Assembly (NCBI GenBank): GCA_900320095.1
Contig: ONQZ01000002.1
Location: forward strand, 8,165-72,164
Origin: an uncultured Lentisphaerota bacterium
GTDB lineage: Bacteria > Verrucomicrobiota > Lentisphaeria > Victivallales > UBA1829
DNA length: 64,000 nt
Reading direction: 5' to 3'
Part shown: one piece after another, positions 12,601 to 36,011 of the stretch
Layout of the letters: each line of letters opens with the position of its first letter
Numbering within the stretch: the stretch's first letter is position 1
Program-made: the position numbers and the translations under genes
Notes under the pieces: generated by a model
Database searches by the model: none
The model's input: the letters and a program-made list of their open reading frames with translations, nothing else
What the model was told of the DNA's origin: nothing

Positions 12601-13890
12601 TTACATTCCCTGGTAGGGGTATCCGCCGGACTGCGGCAGCGGATTGTTCTGAACGGCATTGGCGGAGCGGCGGGCTTTTTCGGCGTCCGCTTCGGCTTTC
12701 TTGCGTGCCTCCGTCTCGTCCGCGGCGCGTCTGTTCGCGGCGGCGAGCTCGTTGGAAAGGGTCTGATTCTTTTCGCGAAGGTCCGCGATCTTGCCGGAAA
12801 CGACGTTCAATTCTTCGTTGAGCTTGTCGACCTCTTTGCCGCGTTCGGTCTGGGCGGCGAGTTCCTCCCGGAGCTTACGAATCTCCTCGTCACGGGCCGG
12901 CTCGCTTTCGGCGGCCTGCTTCAGGCGTTCCTGAAGGGACTCGATCTGCTGAATGAGCTTGAGGCGTTCGGCGGCGAACTGTTCCTTTTCGAGGGCGATC
13001 CGCGCCTCGAACTGCGCCTGCTGCGCCTCCATCGCGGAGCCGTTGGCGCGTTTCATCTCCTCAATCGCAGCATCGAACGCCGCACGCTGGGCGGGGAGGT
13101 CGGCGCGGAGCTTCTGAAGCTCGTCGTTCATGCCGGACACGCTGCCCGCGAGATTTGTGACGCGCCCCTCCATGCCGGACACGCGCCCCTCCATGCCGGA
13201 CACGCTACCCGCGAGACCGGACACGCTGCCGGAAAGATTGCCGACGTCGGTGCGAAGGGCGTTTTCGCGCGTTTCCGAGCCCGCGGTGAGCGCGGCGATC
13301 GCGGACGCGGCGTCGCGGCTGGCGGCGGTGTTGTCGCGCTGGACGAGGAAGTTCACGTAGAAGAGCGCCAGCAAACCGGCCAGGACCACAATGATCATGA
13401 CCGCCACGGCGAGCATTACGCGCAGACGCCGCGCGGAGACGTCGGCTTTTTTGTTGACCGCGCTCATGGCATCGCAGAGGTCGGTGAACTTCGAGCCGAG
13501 CAGATCGTACAGCTCGTCGAAATTCTCCTGCTTCACCACGGGATAGTTCTGCTGGTCCGGGTTCGGGCTCGCGGCGTCCGGCCCGGCGCCGTTTTCGGCG
13601 GGATTCTGTTCGGTCCCGGAGGCATCCGGCGGCTCCACGGTCGGATGAACCGGGAAGGTGCGTTCGAGTTCGCCGTCGATGTCGCCGATGGAACGTCCGG
13701 CGGTACGGAGTTCGGCGACCTTGCAGAGGACGGAGAGGGTGCGGTCGGTGTAGAAACGGCGGCGACCCTGCGTCTGGAGCTCGATGAAACGGGAATACTT
13801 GCCGAGCCAGTCGGTGATGGTCGTGCGCGGCACGCCGACCTGATCGGCGAGGTCGCTGATCGAATAAAGGTTCTGATTTTCGGGATTCAT
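12601..13890 (-). CDS. MerR-type HTH protein with a single transmembrane helix and a long C-terminal coiled coil (function unknown)
   Basis: 429 aa. It has an N-terminal MerR-like HTH (YSISDLADQVGVPRTTITDWLGKY..GRRRFYTDRTLSVLCKVAELR) and a hydrophobic helix RRLRVMLAVAVMIIVVLAGLLALFYVNFLV. About 240 aa rich in E/K/Q/A/R follow, with 7-aa repeats (SGMEGRV x2 and similar). Its ATG overlaps the ribF stop (ATGA at 13887-13890). Confidence 0.6.
   Translation of the reverse strand: MNPENQNLYSISDLADQVGVPRTTITDWLGKYSRFIELQTQGRRRFYTDRTLSVLCKVAELRTAGRSIGDIDGELERTFPVHPTVEPPDASGTEQNPAENGAGPDAASPNPDQQNYPVVKQENFDELYDLLGSKFTDLCDAMSAVNKKADVSARRLRVMLAVAVMIIVVLAGLLALFYVNFLVQRDNTAASRDAASAIAALTAGSETRENALRTDVGNLSGSVSGLAGSVSGMEGRVSGMEGRVTNLAGSVSGMNDELQKLRADLPAQRAAFDAAIEEMKRANGSAMEAQQAQFEARIALEKEQFAAERLKLIQQIESLQERLKQAAESEPARDEEIRKLREELAAQTERGKEVDKLNEELNVVSGKIADLREKNQTLSNELAAANRRAADETEARKKAEADAEKARRSANAVQNNPLPQSGGYPYQGM
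13128..13232 (-). repeat. Five tandem 21-nt (7-codon) units inside the MerR/coiled-coil gene
   Basis: On the plus strand, catgccggacacgc recurs at 13128, 13170 and 13191, interleaved with gagatttgtgacgcgcccctc and gagaccggacacgctgccgga. The units encode GSVSGLA/GSVSGME/GRVSGME/GRVTNLA/GSVSGMN. Confidence 0.8.
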
Positions 13891-26995: not shown

Positions 26996-28135
26996 ATGAA
27001 ATACATCCTGTTTACAGTTACATTCGCGGCATCCGTCTGCGCCGTGCCGGCACTGTTCGCCGGGTCCGGCATGATGGACGACCTCATCAAGCCTTACGAC
27101 GACACGCTCATCGAGCTCCCGGGCGAAAGCACCCGCAAGCCGTCCGTGTCCCGTTCCGCCCAGCTCGTCGACGACAGCGCGACCGACACCTGGGGCGCCC
27201 GCGACGACGGTTCCTCCCCGTCCACGAAAACTTCTTCTTCTTCGTCTTCGTCCTCCTCTGCGAAATCCGCAAGTTCCTCGTCTTCCTCCTACTCCTCGTC
27301 TTCCTCGTCTTCCTCCTCGTCCTCGACGAGATCAAAGAGTTTCACGGACGACGGGGTCTATATCCCGTATTCGGAACGCTATCCCGAGGAGAAGAAGGAA
27401 ACGTCGGAATCCGGCTTCGAGCGGAACACCTTCGATCCCGATTTCAGACCGTTCCAGAACAACTACCAGTACAAAGACACCAACTACCAGCCCAACAGGA
27501 CCCGTCCGGAATTCGAGGAAACCCGCCGGAAGATCAAGGACATCCTGGGCGAGGGCGTGCCGAAGGTGATGGTAGATTCGAAGGTGGACGAGCTGATCCA
27601 CAACGCCGCGCGCACCGCCACACTGGAGGCCCCCGAGACGCCGACCCGCTGGACGCGCGCGCCGAACGGCTGGTTCTGCGACTACGACGACGTGATGGAA
27701 AAGGCGCAGCAGACCGGAAAGGCGGTCGCGGTGTTCTTCCATTCGTCCGACAAGGACAATTCGCGCAAGTTCAAGACCGAGCGCATGGAAAACAACAAGT
27801 TCAAGAACAAAATGCGCGACCGTCTGCTCGTGCTCTACATGGATTATCCGGACAACGCCGACACCAGCAAGGACAAGCGTTACCGCGAGCAGGTGCAGCA
27901 CAACACGCGGATCGCCGAGAAGTTCCATGTCTCGAACTATCCCACGGTCATCATCCTGGACTCCACGGGCAAGGAGATCGGCCGCCTCGACAGCAATACG
28001 AACTCGGTCACGACGTTCGTGGAAAAGGCCGACAGGCTCGTCCCTCAGCGCGAGGCGAAAGAGAAAAAGCAGACCGGATTCAAGGTCGGCGGCGGCATAT
28101 CGGACGAATTCGGCGTCCGGAAGTCTTCGGACTGA
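26996..28135 (+). CDS. Secreted protein with poly-Ser tract and C-terminal thioredoxin-fold domain lacking CxxC
   Basis: The start is moved to the ATG at 26996 (MKYILFTVTFAASVCAVPALFA signal peptide, GGAG SD 9 nt upstream). The C-terminus (KAVAVFFHSSDKDNSRKF...FHVSNYPTVIILDSTGKEIGRL) has thioredoxin-like topology, but the redox CxxC is replaced by SDKD. Confidence 0.55.
   Translation: MKYILFTVTFAASVCAVPALFAGSGMMDDLIKPYDDTLIELPGESTRKPSVSRSAQLVDDSATDTWGARDDGSSPSTKTSSSSSSSSSAKSASSSSSSYSSSSSSSSSSSTRSKSFTDDGVYIPYSERYPEEKKETSESGFERNTFDPDFRPFQNNYQYKDTNYQPNRTRPEFEETRRKIKDILGEGVPKVMVDSKVDELIHNAARTATLEAPETPTRWTRAPNGWFCDYDDVMEKAQQTGKAVAVFFHSSDKDNSRKFKTERMENNKFKNKMRDRLLVLYMDYPDNADTSKDKRYREQVQHNTRIAEKFHVSNYPTVIILDSTGKEIGRLDSNTNSVTTFVEKADRLVPQREAKEKKQTGFKVGGGISDEFGVRKSSD
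27211..27330 (+). repeat. Ser-codon (TCN/AGY) low-complexity tract
   Basis: It encodes SSPSTKTSSSSSSSSSAKSASSSSSSYSSSSSSSSSSS. At DNA level it consists of imperfect tct/tcg/tcc triplet runs. Confidence 0.85.
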
Positions 28136-30550: not shown

Positions 30551-30614
30551 TCCCGAGATACGGGATGACATGCGTTCGCAACAGGCGCCACCAGTAAAAA
30601 CGGAACTCTTTACC

Positions 30615-31370
30615 ATGGATGCAGGCAGAATACTTGACGATTTCCGCAGCGGAGCCATCACCCGCGAAGAGGCGCTCGCGCGCCTGAACAAACTCCCGTA
30701 CGAGGACATCGGCTTCGCCAAGCTCGACCACCACAGGCAGATCCGGCGCGGCGGCATCGAAACCGTGTTCTGCGCGGGCAAGACCGCCGAACAGGTCCGC
30801 GCCATCTTCGAGCGCTTCATCGCCGCGGGCGGAAACGCCCTCGGGACGCGCGCCACGCCCGAACAGGCGGAATACGTCCGCGCCGCCCTGCCCGGCGTGC
30901 AGTACGACCCCGTGTCGCGCATGCTGTACATCATGGGCAATCCGAAGCCGCGGACCGGGTGCGTGGCGGTCTGTACGGGCGGCACGTCCGACCAGCCGGT
31001 CGCCGAGGAGGCCGCGAAGACCGCCGAGTTCTTCGGCGCCGAGGTGAAACGCTTCTACGACGTCGGCGTCGCCGGCATCCACCGTCTGTTCGCCTGCCTC
31101 GACGAGATCCGCACCGCGAACGCCGTGGTGGCAGTCGCCGGGATGGAGGGCGCGCTCGGCGGCGTGATCGCCGGGCTTGTCTCCGTGCCGGTCGTGGCGG
31201 TGCCGACGTCCGTGGGGTACGGCGCGTCCTTCGCCGGGATCGCCCCGCTCCTGACCATGCTCAATTCCTGTGCCGAAGGCATGTCCGTCGTAAACATCGA
31301 CAACGGATTCGGCGCGGGCTACCTCGCCGCACGCATCAATTCGCTCGTCACACAGGGGAACCAGCCATGA
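30615..31370 (+). CDS. larB: Nickel-pincer cofactor biosynthesis protein LarB (NaAD carboxylase/hydrolase, AIR-carboxylase fold)
   Basis: The start is moved to the ATG at 30615 (MDAGRILDDFRSGAITREEALARLNKLPYEDIGFAKLDHHRQIRRGGIETVFCAGKT), which matches the LarB N-terminal pattern. The PurE-like C-half reads VAVCTGGTSDQPVAEEA..AVAGMEGAL. Confidence 0.85.
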   Translation: MDAGRILDDFRSGAITREEALARLNKLPYEDIGFAKLDHHRQIRRGGIETVFCAGKTAEQVRAIFERFIAAGGNALGTRATPEQAEYVRAALPGVQYDPVSRMLYIMGNPKPRTGCVAVCTGGTSDQPVAEEAAKTAEFFGAEVKRFYDVGVAGIHRLFACLDEIRTANAVVAVAGMEGALGGVIAGLVSVPVVAVPTSVGYGASFAGIAPLLTMLNSCAEGMSVVNIDNGFGAGYLAARINSLVTQGNQP

Positions 31371-32704
31371 GCAAAACCATCCTTTACCTCGAATGCGCCA
31401 CCGGGATCAGCGGCGACATGACCGTGGCCGCGCTGCTCGACCTCGGCGCTTCCAAAATCAAACTGCTCGCCGCCCTCGACAGCCTGAACGTGGAGGGATA
31501 TTCCGTCACGGTCCGACGCGCCAACTCGCACGGCGTGGACGCCTGTTCGTTCGACGTCGAGCTGGAGCATGAACACGAACACGGGCACGAACACGGGCAC
31601 CATCACGTGCACGACCACGAAGCGCTCGAACACGAACACGCACACGAAGCCCACGAGCACCATCACGACCACGGGCATGAACATCACCACGAGCACGACC
31701 ACGGGCACGAGCACCATCATCCGCATGTGCACCGGAATCTGGCGGACGTGACCGCCATCCTGAACAGCGGCGACCTGACGCCGCACGCCCGCGAACTCGC
31801 GCTGAAGATATTCGGCATCGTAGCCAAAGCAGAATCCAAAGCGCACGGCAAGCCGATTGACGAAGTACACTTCCACGAGGTCGGCGCGATCGACTCCATC
31901 GTGGACATCGCCGCCGCCGCGGTCTGCCTCGACGACCTCGGGATCGACGACGTCGTCGTGACGGGCCTGAGCGAGGGGACCGGATTCGTGGAGTGCCAGC
32001 ACGGCCTGCTCCCGATCCCCGTGCCCGCCGTGGCGAACATCGCCTCCGCAAGCGGGCTCCCGCTCCGCATCCTCCCCGTGGAGGGCGAGATGGTCACTCC
32101 GACCGGCGCGGCCATCGCCGCCGCCGTCCGGACGCGTTCCGCCCTGCCCGAATCCTTCACGATCAGGAAGATCGGCCTTGGCGCGGGCAAACGCGAGTTC
32201 GGGATGCCGAACGTGCTCCGCGCGATGCTGATCGAGGAGACCGCCGCCGCGGACGCGCCGCCCGCGGAGATCATGATCCTGGAGACCAACATCGACGATT
32301 CCTCGGGCGAAACGCTCGGCCTGGCGATGGATTCCCTGCTCGCCGCCGGGGCGCTTGACGTGCATTACGTCCCCGTCTTCATGAAGAAAAACCGTCCGGC
32401 GTGGCTCCTGCGCGTGATCTGCCGCGAGGCGGACGTGTCGGCGATGGAACGCGTCATCTTCACGGAGACCAGCTCCATCGGCCTGCGCAAGCTCCCGGCA
32501 GGGCGCACCTGCCTCGCGCGCACGGTCGTGGACGTGATGCTCCCCGCCGGGTCCGCGAAGGTCAAGAAATGCAGCTTCGACGGACAGACGTTCTACTACC
32601 CCGAATACGAAAGCATCAAGGCGCTGGCGGCCGCTTCCGGCGTGCCGTTCGCCGATCTCTTCCGCGACGCCGCGGAGACTGCGAGGGCAAACGATGAAAG
32701 ATAA
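31367..32704 (+). CDS. larC: Nickel insertion protein LarC (pyridinium-3,5-bisthiocarboxylate mononucleotide nickel chelatase), single uninterrupted ORF
   Basis: The ATG at 31367 overlaps the larB stop (ATGA). The N-terminus MSKTILYLECATGISGDM is the LarC/DUF111 signature. A His-rich insert and the C-terminal LarC2-like domain are present. The track's earlier start at 30959 is an Arg-rich shadow. Confidence 0.85.
   Translation: MSKTILYLECATGISGDMTVAALLDLGASKIKLLAALDSLNVEGYSVTVRRANSHGVDACSFDVELEHEHEHGHEHGHHHVHDHEALEHEHAHEAHEHHHDHGHEHHHEHDHGHEHHHPHVHRNLADVTAILNSGDLTPHARELALKIFGIVAKAESKAHGKPIDEVHFHEVGAIDSIVDIAAAAVCLDDLGIDDVVVTGLSEGTGFVECQHGLLPIPVPAVANIASASGLPLRILPVEGEMVTPTGAAIAAAVRTRSALPESFTIRKIGLGAGKREFGMPNVLRAMLIEETAAADAPPAEIMILETNIDDSSGETLGLAMDSLLAAGALDVHYVPVFMKKNRPAWLLRVICREADVSAMERVIFTETSSIGLRKLPAGRTCLARTVVDVMLPAGSAKVKKCSFDGQTFYYPEYESIKALAAASGVPFADLFRDAAETARANDER
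31568..31732 (+). repeat. His-codon-rich tract inside larC
   Basis: It encodes HEHEHGHEHGHHHVHDHEALEHEHAHEAHEHHHDHGHEHHHEHDHGHEHHHPHVH. By my count that is about 30 His in 55 residues. Confidence 0.85.
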
Positions 32705-33515
32705 GTTGAACGAACTCCGGCGGATGCTGGAAGGACTGAGCGCGGACGGCGTCTGCGCGGCATTTTCCGGCGGCGTCGACAGCTCCCTGCTCCTGACCGT
32801 CCTGTCCGAAATCTACGCGCGGAAACCGTTCCCCCTGCTCGCCGTCGTGTTCGCCACGGCGTTCCACACCGCCGAGGAGACCGCGTCCGCGATGAAGCAG
32901 GCGGAGGAACTGGGCGTGCCGGCGGAACTCGTCGAACGCGACGTGCTGTCCGATCCGGTGCTGCGCGGGAATCCGAAGGACCGCTGCTACCACTGCAAAC
33001 GCGCGCTTTTCTCCGAGATGAAACGCATCGCCGAAGCGCACGGCATCAGAAACCTCGTGGACGGCACCAACGCCGACGACACGCAGGTGTACCGTCCCGG
33101 ACGCAAGGCGCTGGAGGAGCTCGGCGTACTGAGTCCGCTGGCGCTCTGCGGATTTACGAAGGACGAGATCCGCGCCGCCGCCCGCGGGCTCCTGATCCCC
33201 GTCGCGGACAAACCGTCCACGCCGTGCCTCGCGACGCGCTTCCCCTACGGCACGGCCATGACGGACGAGGCATTGCGCCGGGTGGAACGCGGCGAGGCGG
33301 TGCTGCGCGAATTCGGGCTGAAGGTGGTGCGGCTGCGCGTCCACAGCGACGTCGCGCGCATTGAGACCGATCCCGACGGATTCGAACTGGCCGCCGCCAG
33401 ACGATTCGAGATCGCGTTCGCGCTCCGCAAAGAGGGATTCCCGTACGTCACGCTCGACCTGGAGGGATTCCGTTCCGGCAGCATGGACGAGCCGCTTCTC
33501 ACAAAACAATCATAA
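32694..33515 (+). CDS. larE: LarE, ATP-dependent sulfur transferase of nickel-pincer cofactor synthesis (PP-loop ATPase)
   Basis: 273 aa. It has a PP-loop (AFSGGVDSSLL) and the LarE-type Cys in STPCLATRFPYG (Cys178), plus CYHC (Cys98, Cys101). It overlaps larC by 11 nt. Confidence 0.85.
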   Translation: MKDKLNELRRMLEGLSADGVCAAFSGGVDSSLLLTVLSEIYARKPFPLLAVVFATAFHTAEETASAMKQAEELGVPAELVERDVLSDPVLRGNPKDRCYHCKRALFSEMKRIAEAHGIRNLVDGTNADDTQVYRPGRKALEELGVLSPLALCGFTKDEIRAAARGLLIPVADKPSTPCLATRFPYGTAMTDEALRRVERGEAVLREFGLKVVRLRVHSDVARIETDPDGFELAAARRFEIAFALRKEGFPYVTLDLEGFRSGSMDEPLLTKQS

Positions 33516-33597: not shown

Positions 33598-35943
33598 TTA
33601 CTTCTGAATGAGGCCGAGCCATTCCTGAACGAGAGGCGCGACCTTGATGAAGAGCGGCGTGAAGACGACCGCGACCATGCTCATGAGCTTCACGAGGATG
33701 TTCAGGGCCGGGCCGCTGGTGTCCTTGCAGGGGTCGCCAACAGTGTCGCCGATGACAGCCGCGCCGTGGACGGGGTTCTTGGTGCCGTCCGGGAGCTTCT
33801 TGCCGCCGAAATTGCCCTTTTCAATGTGCTTCTTGGCGTTGTCCCACGCGCCGCCGGCGTTGTTCAGCATGCAGGCGAGGGAGAAGCCGCAGGTGAGGCC
33901 GCCGATGAGCAGCCCCATGATGCCGGGGACGCCGAGGATCAGGCCGGTGGCGACCGGGATGATGATGGCGAGGAGGGCGGGGAGCATCATCTCGTGCTGC
34001 GCGCCTTTGGTGGAGATCGCCACGCAGCGGGCGTAATCGGGCTTGCCGGTACCGTCCATGATGCCGGGGATGGTGCGGAACTGACGGCGGACCTCCTCGA
34101 CCATGCGTCCGGCGGCGCGTCCGACCGCCTTCATGGTGAGCGCGCAGAAGACGAACGCCATCATGGCGCCGAGGAAGCATCCGCAGAGGAAGAGCGGGTT
34201 CATGACGTTGATCTTGAAGAAATCGACGAGGATGGCGAAGTGGTCGGAATCCAGCAGGAGTTTCGCCTTCACCTCCATCGGGAACGCGTTGAACTTGCCG
34301 CCCCAGATCTCGATCTCCTGGATCTCGGCGGCGAGCAGCGCCATGGCGGTGAGCGCGGCGGACCCGATGGCGAATCCTTTGCCCGTGGCGGCCGTGGTGT
34401 TGCCAAGCATGTCGAGGGCGTCGGTGCGTTCGCGGACGTGCGGCGGGAGCGCGGACATCTCGGCGTTGCCGCCGGCGTTGTCGGCGATCGGCCCGTAGGC
34501 ATCCGTGGCGAGCGTGATGCCGAGCGTGGCGAGCATGCCGACGGCGGCGAACCCGATGCCGTAGAGGCCGAAGATCGTGCCCTGCGTGAAGCCGCCCGCG
34601 AAGGCGAACGAGCTGATGATCGCGGCGACGGTCGCGACGACCGGGATCGCGGCGGAGAGCATGCCGAGCGAGAGGCCGTAGATGATGGTCGGAGCGGGGC
34701 CCATCTGCGCCTGCGCGGCGAGTTCCTTCGTCGGGCCGTATTCGTCGGAGGTGTAATACTCGGTGCTGTAGCCGATCACCACGCCGGCGATCAGGCCGGA
34801 GACGATCGCGCCGAACACGCCCCAGGTGAGGATGCCGCATCCGGCGAGGATCGCGCATGCGACGACGATCAGGACGGAACTGCCCCAGGTGCCGAGACGC
34901 AATGCGCGGAGCAGCGTGCCCATGCTCGCACCTTCCTTGCAGCGCACCGCGAAGATGCCGATCAGCGACAGCACCACGCCGATGCCCGCGACGATCATCG
35001 GGGCGTTCACGTAGGCGACCGTGGTCTTCATCGCGGCGGGGATGGCCGCGCCGAGGTCGGCGGTGGAGAGGATGGAGCCGCAGGTGGTCTTCATCGCGGC
35101 GGGGATGGCAGCGCCGAGGGCGGCGGTGGAAAGGATGGAGCCGCAGTAGGATTCGTAGAGGTCCGCGCCCATGCCCGCGACGTCGCCGACGTTGTCGCCG
35201 ACGTTGTCCGCGATGGTGGCGGGGTTGCGCGGGTCGTCCTCGGGGATGCCCGCCTCGACCTTGCCGACGAGGTCCGCGCCGACGTCAGCGGCCTTCGTGT
35301 AGATGCCGCCGCCGACACGGGCGAAGAGCGCCTGCGTGGACGCGCCCATGCCGAAGGTCAGCATGGTGGTCGTGATCTCGACGAACTTGTGCGAGACATC
35401 GAATCCGGGCGTGACGAGCTGGAGTCCGAGGAACGACAGGCCGTGCGCCATGTGGTCGGGCGTGTAGACCAGGCGGTCCAGGATGAAATACCACGCGGTG
35501 ATGTCGAAAAGGCCGAACCCGACCACGGCGAGGCCCATGACCGCGCCGGACCGGAACGCCACCTGAAGGCCGCGGTTCAGGCTTTCGCTCGCGCCCTGCG
35601 CCGTGCGGCTGGACGCGCTCGTGGCGGTCTTCATGCCCACGAATCCGCAGAGGCCGGAGAAGAAGCCGCCGGTCAGAAACGCGACCGGGACGAAGGGGTT
35701 CTGGAGCTTCAGGACCGCCAGGATCGCGAAGATCACGAAGAGGACGGCGAAGACGATGCCGACGCGCGAATACTGCTGTTTCAGGTACGCCATCGCGCCG
35801 TCGCGCACGTATCCGGCGATCTCCTCCATGTGTTCGTTGCCGGTGCCGGCGCGTTTCATCAGGATGTAGCACAGAGCGGCTGAGAGAAGGGCGACGATGG
35901 AGCAGACGGGAGCGATCCACCAGATGGACGTAGATCCGAACAT
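33598..35943 (-). CDS. hppA: Membrane-bound ion-translocating pyrophosphatase (V-type H+/Na+-PPase)
   Basis: About 781 aa. I prefer the ATG at 35943 (GGAGGT SD 7 nt upstream) over the track GTG at 35949. Signature motifs are [30 protein letters not shown] and [16 protein letters not shown]. Confidence 0.92.
35024..35149 (-). repeat. In-frame 63-bp tandem duplication inside hppA
   Basis: Unit 1 spans 35024-35086 and unit 2 spans 35087-35149. They are identical at 58 of 63 positions by my alignment. They encode [21 protein letters not shown] followed by [21 protein letters not shown]. Confidence 0.9.
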
Positions 35944-36011
35944 AAACACAACCTCCGGATGTTGATAGAAAAACAGAAAGGTTCAATAAAAGGCAAAAAA
36001 CTATGCTATTT

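Follow-up and report, generated by a model that had tools for sequence, protein, structure and literature searches.

The stretch of DNA analysed here, hereafter the window, is a 64,000-nt piece of contig ONQZ01000002.1 from an uncultured Lentisphaerota bacterium, and the feature under study is a 63-bp tandem duplication within its hppA gene, which encodes a membrane pyrophosphatase (mPPase). hppA occupies positions 33598-35943 of the minus strand, with an ATG start codon at 35943 and the stop codon at 33598-33600; its product has 781 amino acids (aa), or 783 aa if translation starts at an alternative in-frame GTG at 35949, and is identical to the database protein P0001. It matches the Pfam PF03030 (H_PPase) profile over its entire length (positions 1-645 of 645, E 7.6e-248, 824.8 bits versus a cut-off of 29.7), as well as the NCBIfam NF001954 model for sodium-translocating pyrophosphatases (962 bits versus a cut-off of 894), and the top phmmer match in the PDB is TmPPase, the K+-dependent Na+-PPase of Thermotoga maritima (4av3, E 4.9e-139). 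The catalytic and coupling motifs of transmembrane helices (TM) 5, 6, 15 and 16 are each present once, at residues 246, 254, 732 (with DTVGDP at 733) and 740. At residue 514, a GNTTAA motif aligns to the GNTTAA of TmPPase, and GNTTKA is not found in the protein; an alanine at position 12.46, giving GNTTAA rather than GNTTKA, is the K+-dependence signature of mPPases. Furthermore, GADLYES of the window protein aligns with GADLLES of TmPPase, which places the semi-conserved gate glutamate at 6.53. This glutamate is found in Na+-PPases, Na+/H+-PPases and K+-independent H+-PPases, and the roles of the gate residues D6.50, E6.53 and S6.54 have been described (PMC5150537). From these motifs, the hppA product is predicted to be a K+-dependent mPPase of the Na+-translocating type.

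Within the 2346-nt open reading frame (ORF) of hppA, two 63-bp units follow each other head to tail with the reading frame kept. Tandem Repeats Finder (TRF) reports them at 35021-35146 (period 63 bp, 2.0 copies, 95% matches, no indels, score 231), and this repeat outranks by far every other tandem repeat that TRF scored in the window; such identity over such a length is far beyond chance. The original prediction, made from the sequence alone, had placed the repeat at 35024-35149, with 58 of 63 positions identical. Sliding the register reproduces this value from 35024 but gives the best match, 60 of 63, from 35021, so that the predicted coordinates are 3 nt off the best register. Likewise, of the five differences initially counted between the copies, two synonymous changes (CTT/CTC and GCT/GCG) and one change of alanine to aspartate (GCC to GAC) are true differences, and the two adjacent flanking changes are the product of the 3-nt offset. 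In codon register, copy 1 (gene-proximal) covers 35083-35145 (aa 267-287 of 781) and copy 2 covers 35020-35082 (aa 288-308), both on the minus strand, as are the features that follow. The GAC codon for D296 (35056-35058) is private to copy 2. Directly upstream of copy 1 lies the 13-residue core motif of TM6 (35146-35184), which carries the gate residues D6.50 (D261), E6.53 (E264) and S6.54 (S265), as assigned by the alignment to TmPPase and by motif positions, and which is untouched by the duplication. TRF and translation thus bear out a genuine, diverged, in-frame duplication of 21 residues right after this motif, as had been proposed.

The breakpoint can be placed to the nucleotide. The duplicated unit begins with the final C of TAC (Y266) and ends with the first two bases of ACG (T), which creates the junction AAG ACC AC/C TGC GGC at 35083-35084 (spanning sequence ATGAAGACCACCTGCGGCTCCAT), and ACC versus ACG in the last codon of the copies is therefore the breakpoint itself rather than a fourth difference. 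The unit's last base is not the same as the base preceding the unit, nor is its first base the same as the one following it, and the breakpoint is therefore uniquely defined.

The distribution of the duplication was assessed on database proteins and on the DNA of 20 loci from cattle and other rumen metagenomes (STEW18/19, PRJEB21624, LIUQ22 and RUG genomes), all of the sequences compared being short-read metagenome assemblies whose sources label the close relatives "Lentisphaeria bacterium". Among the 120 best-scoring cluster representatives, P0001 alone carries the duplication, the next relatives having 760 aa, i.e., 781 minus 21; the insertion is thus lineage-specific, a point that the original prediction had proposed to check by aligning orthologues. 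The 90%-identity cluster of P0001 nevertheless holds five distinct 781-aa proteins (P0001, P0125, P0131, P0132 and P0133), each on 2-6 contig records, together with many 760-aa proteins. At the DNA level, the ACC/TGC junction is the same in the window allele and in loci L001-3, L007-9 and L021-23. A scan for a 23-nt junction sequence in one genome per GTDB species returned three species representatives, RUG11954, RUG12414 and RUG14783, which are identical to lineages L007, L008 and L009, respectively. The same 23-mer had no match in JGI metagenome contigs, where a protein-guided scan recovered non-duplicated relatives only (best 95% identity), and the duplication has so far been seen only in rumen assemblies of ENA/NCBI.

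Where the additional 21 residues go is suggested by hydrophobicity, by structure prediction and by the length variation of the family. The unit had been expected to add about one helix to the 16-TM topology and to disturb this topology or the ion gate; neither expectation is supported by the data. The mean Kyte-Doolittle values of copy 1 (1.04) and of the D-containing copy 2 (0.79) are well below that of TM7 (2.25), and an AlphaFold2 (AF2) model of the 781-aa protein keeps all helices (predicted local distance difference test score, pLDDT, 85.4; predicted TM-score, pTM, 0.86). TM6 spans residues 243-284 in this model and TM7 residues 303-332, with residues 283-304 predicted at low confidence (pLDDT <50). 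As a control, the 760-aa sister P0128 was modelled with the same alignment partners (pLDDT 87.1, pTM 0.90): TM6 spans residues 243-279 and is followed by a 4-residue turn, IPAA, and by TM7 at 284-311. The TM7 starts of the two models agree, as 284 plus 21 gives 305, close to residue 303 of the duplicated model. In the latter, the head of copy 1 (C267 to about A279/M284) is predicted to complete TM6 on its periplasmic side, and the tail of copy 2 (AAMKTT) to begin TM7, while the tail of copy 1 and the head of copy 2 would make up an extra periplasmic loop. Target-normalised Foldseek TM-scores of the 781-aa model are 0.88-0.92 to TmPPase, VrPPase and PaPPase (0.88-0.90 to the first two, 0.90 to TmPPase), and the 16-TM mPPase fold is thus predicted to be retained with the duplication.

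The place of this predicted loop is also where the family varies. Among about 200 relatives, the distance from D6.50 to the "AP" of TM7 ranges from 30 to 47 residues, with all of the variation located after LGAA(I/L/V). Counted on the alignment, the segment that leads from E6.53 to the proline of the TM7 start amounts to 45 residues in TmPPase, 31 in the non-duplicated alleles, and 52 in the window protein. Other mPPases of the same clade, such as those of L033 and L050 (47 and 41 aa from D6.50 to TM7, respectively), have up to 14 additional residues inserted at this position, which shows that the site accepts extra length; in contrast to the window protein, these insertions are polar and non-repetitive, none duplicates the adjacent helix, and all are shorter. 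In TmPPase, loop 6-7 consists of the β1-2 strands beside the exit channel and contributes two thirds of a site at which an allosteric inhibitor, once bound, keeps the exit channel locked in the closed state; this loop is reported to be highly variable between mPPases and to be missing in the parasite enzymes (PMC6530997). The TM6-TM7 site hence accepts changes in length, yet it is not functionally irrelevant.

TmPPase (PDB 4av3, 5lzq, 6qxa) is also the best-matching solved relative: it belongs to the same family and fold as the window protein and shares the D6.50/E6.53/S6.54 gate signature and the GNTTAA motif, and its loop 6-7, next to the exit channel, is likewise long (PMC6530997). It differs in that its long loop is a β-hairpin unrelated in sequence and without any TM6 repeat, whereas the extension in the window protein is a recent copy of the end of TM6 and of the turn. 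Much closer relatives are the non-duplicated 760-aa sisters (P0128, P0126-P0130, P0121 and P0002), which are 97-99% identical outside the duplication, have the same larE-larC-larB genes downstream at most loci and are under the same level of purifying selection, but lack the 21 residues and have, in the AF2 model, the tight 4-residue turn between TM6 and TM7.

Selection on the gene was estimated over its core by pairwise ratios of non-synonymous to synonymous divergence (dN/dS, Nei-Gojobori). The mean is 0.059 (range 0.038-0.076) between duplicated alleles, 0.074 between non-duplicated alleles and 0.069 for mixed pairs. The ORF is intact in all alleles, including those of the five duplicated lineages, and assemblies of the window lineage differ by 3-6 nt, all synonymous, and encode the same protein P0001. 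hppA is thus under strong purifying selection among the duplicated alleles as well. It had initially been left open whether the enzyme tolerates the duplication or the gene is drifting; the data favour tolerance, and a dN/dS of about 0.06 contradicts drift.

The reading that we consider probable is that the duplicated 21 residues are a tolerated extension of the periplasmic TM6-TM7 loop which leaves the ion gate and the topology intact. The location in the loop is suggested by the AF2 models, by hydrophobicity and by family variation, and pump activity would putatively be retained. This scenario starts from the single and fairly old 63-bp in-frame duplication of hppA within a group of Lentisphaeria from the rumen. 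Since a tandem duplication can be read from either end, both native helix ends could be kept: the head of copy 1 would extend TM6 in register with D6.50, E6.53 and S6.54, the tail of copy 2 would begin TM7, and the 21 surplus residues would bulge into the periplasm, lengthening the 4-residue turn to a loop of about 25 residues that adjoins the exit channel. The change of alanine to aspartate at D296, in the middle of the surplus segment, lowers its hydrophobicity and would fit a solvent-exposed position. The enzyme would stay functional, and the allele segregates as a structural polymorphism in several species-level lineages, spread by homologous recombination.

Several points weigh against this reading or limit its support. 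The AF2 alignment covers the insert with the query row only, so that the low pLDDT of this segment is uninformative and was not used as evidence of disorder, and retention of the fold is what AF2 would be expected to give for any insertion in a family that it knows well. At 54 residues, the segment from D6.50 to TM7 exceeds that of every one of the approximately 200 relatives and lies outside the natural range sampled. Pairwise dN/dS averages over a history that recombination may partly have spent without the duplication, and although the values obtained set a bound on any relaxation of selection, a mild one is compatible with them. A functional defect could, moreover, be masked if the carrier genomes have a second pyrophosphatase. 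Lastly, the support for the duplication is at the level of assembled contigs.

It is possible, but rather unlikely, that the extended loop 6-7 is adaptive, i.e., that it alters the opening of the exit channel, the asymmetry between subunits or the contact with a periplasmic or membrane partner, and that it was favoured and hence spread between species. Both of the recombination events that could be polarised, which are described below, look like gains (in lineage A and in L003, with an L007-like donor), no clear loss is seen even though a 63-bp direct repeat should delete easily, and the duplication has persisted until its copies reached a synonymous divergence (dS) of 0.13-0.21. In addition, the change of alanine to aspartate, the sole amino-acid change between the copies, is common to 4 of the 5 duplicated protein alleles, and loop 6-7 forms much of the inhibitor site that locks the exit channel of TmPPase (PMC6530997). 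However, these arguments come from a small sample of five duplicated lineages and two polarised events, the non-duplicated alleles are still common and equally constrained, L003 lacks the D and has two copies identical at 63 of 63 positions, and neutral hitch-hiking in a highly recombining population would give the same pattern. More specifically, the duplicated segment might be a new functional periplasmic element that tunes the opening of the exit channel or the half-of-sites asymmetry of the dimer, by analogy with the ATC inhibitor, which acts through loop 6-7 of TmPPase, and that was selected and introgressed across rumen Lentisphaeria; the two inferred gains and the loop position are compatible with this proposal, which we nonetheless regard as improbable.

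The opposite outcome, in which an additional membrane half-hairpin or a misplaced TM6 gate would cripple the pump and leave the gene to decay, is very improbable. It could be supposed from the start of the insertion just three residues past E6.53, from the run of small and hydrophobic residues in the unit, and from a segment longer than in any relative examined. Yet the five duplicated lineages have kept intact ORFs across up to 7% nucleotide divergence, with a dN/dS no higher than that of the non-duplicated alleles and with exclusively synonymous differences within the window lineage, and the segment is too weakly hydrophobic for an autonomous TM, the fold being kept in the AF2 model.

As regards its origin, the 63-bp duplication arose once, since all carriers have the identical breakpoint without microhomology. 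Microhomology or flanking direct repeats were sought by eye, and the CCTAC present on both sides would yield a unit of 72 nt and not the observed 63 nt. The duplicated alleles are nevertheless interleaved with non-duplicated ones. With both copies removed, the cores of the duplicated alleles (2220 nt) differ by up to 157 nt (7.1%), while the window lineage (with L001 and L002) has non-duplicated sisters, L004-6, at 1.7% core divergence, and L003 has non-duplicated sisters, L010-12, at 1.5%. Flanking DNA is 98.6% identical between the window and L004, versus 90-93% between the window and the other duplicated lineages, and the upstream gene order varies among carriers of the duplication.

Two recombination tracts account for the two close pairs of duplicated and non-duplicated alleles. 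L003 and L012 differ at 32 positions, and 22 of these lie immediately 5' of the duplication, in nt 480-840 (binomial P = 5e-11); this patch is nearest to L007, and the remaining backbone of L003 is L010/L012-like. Similarly, in core nt 674-1058 the window allele has 1 difference from L007 where 18.4 are expected, and none in the 126-nt duplication, versus 12 differences from its own sister L004 where 5.4 are expected. The corresponding tract of about 510 nt, which includes the duplication, lies approximately at 34760-35269 on the minus strand and is identical to the allele of lineage C (RUG11954, L007/L021), even though the two genes differ by about 4% elsewhere. Both tracts are most simply read as cases in which a non-duplicated backbone received the duplication from an L007-like donor, and the duplication has thus moved at least twice into such backbones via homologous recombination. 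The single copy of L004-6, which has CTT as in copy 1 and GCG as in copy 2, was also considered as the footprint of a loss by crossover between the copies, an explanation that is unnecessary given the L007-like import tract.

The interleaving on the gene tree, together with the fact that the two identical copies of L003 match the single copy of its non-duplicated sisters, could alternatively suggest several independent duplications at a hotspot. A breakpoint that is the same to the nucleotide and lacks any microhomology that could direct repeated events, a divergent imported patch in L003 that ends at the duplication, and an identical tract shared by the window and L007 make this highly improbable in comparison with a single origin followed by recombination.

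The copies of the unit have not evolved independently in all lineages. In L008, both copies have an ATT codon that is found in no single-copy allele, and this, along with the identical copies of L003, shows concerted change. Elsewhere, the two copies have diverged to a dS of 0.13 (window allele) or 0.21 (L009), over 16.7 synonymous sites only. As the dS between lineages is 0.15-0.27, and thus similar, the age of the duplication is roughly that of the split between these lineages. Of note, the near-identical pair formed by L003 and L010/L012 has a second cluster of 8 differences, at core nt 1493-1577, which suggests another short recombination patch, unrelated to the duplication.

Lastly, the duplication is real and not an assembly artefact. 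The 781-aa alleles come from MEGAHIT k141 contigs and from scaffold assemblies of different rumen samples, and the k141 contigs cover the full 126 bp of the repeat. The longest substring common to the end and the start of the unit is 7 nt, so that the junction could not have been generated de novo by a de Bruijn assembler, and the GAC codon of copy 2 is absent from every single-copy allele compared, hence copy 2 is not the allele of a co-assembled strain. An assembly stutter, or the joining in tandem of two strain alleles, can be entertained insofar as all assemblies are short-read and the samples contain co-occurring strains with diverged alleles, but it is barely conceivable given that the same in-frame junction, which needs reads containing it, was recovered for no fewer than five allele lineages, across several samples and by assemblers of two kinds, and that the differences between copies are lineage-specific. 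The original prediction had already argued against a stutter, and this is borne out by independent rumen assemblies, in which five diverged allele lineages have the identical junction.

The locus thereby amounts to a natural experiment on the extra length that an mPPase can accommodate in its TM6-TM7 turn, at a site that adjoins the exit channel and an allosteric site already explored in drug design. Naturally occurring alleles that have or lack the 21 residues are available as matched pairs, with as few as 7 other differences (P0001 versus P0128). It is also a small example both of an in-frame duplication, seemingly within a helix, that the protein resolves as a loop insertion, and of a structural variant that persists across species boundaries through homologous recombination. 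The understanding of the family is unchanged by the finding.

Other tandem repeats were found in or near hppA. A search for further repeats of at least 4 residues in the same segment found none among 134 database relatives. By eye, a 3-residue AAL tandem repeat was seen within the end of TM6 in P0094 (723 aa, partial, 80% identity), and would be a second, smaller in-frame duplication in this segment, in another lineage. In the window allele, a perfect 12-bp tandem (2.2 copies, GTCGCCGACGTT) at 35182-35208 encodes the DNVGDNVGD motif that TM6 has throughout the family, and is not a recent duplication.

Beyond the 3' end of hppA, and convergent with it, a lar cluster lies on the plus strand at 30570-33515. 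It comprises larB (AIRC, 30570-31370), larC (approximately 31370-32704; PF01969, encoding a LarC-like nickel-insertion protein) and a larE-like gene (32694-33515), corresponds to the synthesis of the nickel-pincer cofactor of lactate racemase, and is conserved at most of the related loci. The LarC-like protein contains a His-rich stretch (EHEHEHGHEHGHHH…HEHHHPHVH) encoded by an imperfect 18-bp repeat at 31565-31714 (8.3 copies, 62% matches), and its length varies from 430 to 454 aa among related loci, possibly via this repeat. Upstream of hppA, the related loci are rearranged, with GT2 and phosphodiesterase-family genes, or an Na+/H+ exchanger and EF-G, or LacI/MarR with ValRS (L009). Two further repeats of the window lie away from this region: a 21-bp repeat (3.2 copies) at 13160-13226, which encodes (D/H)APLHAG repeats in a 1689-nt open frame, and a 27-bp repeat (1.9 copies) at 27274-27325 in a Ser-rich or Leu-rich frame.

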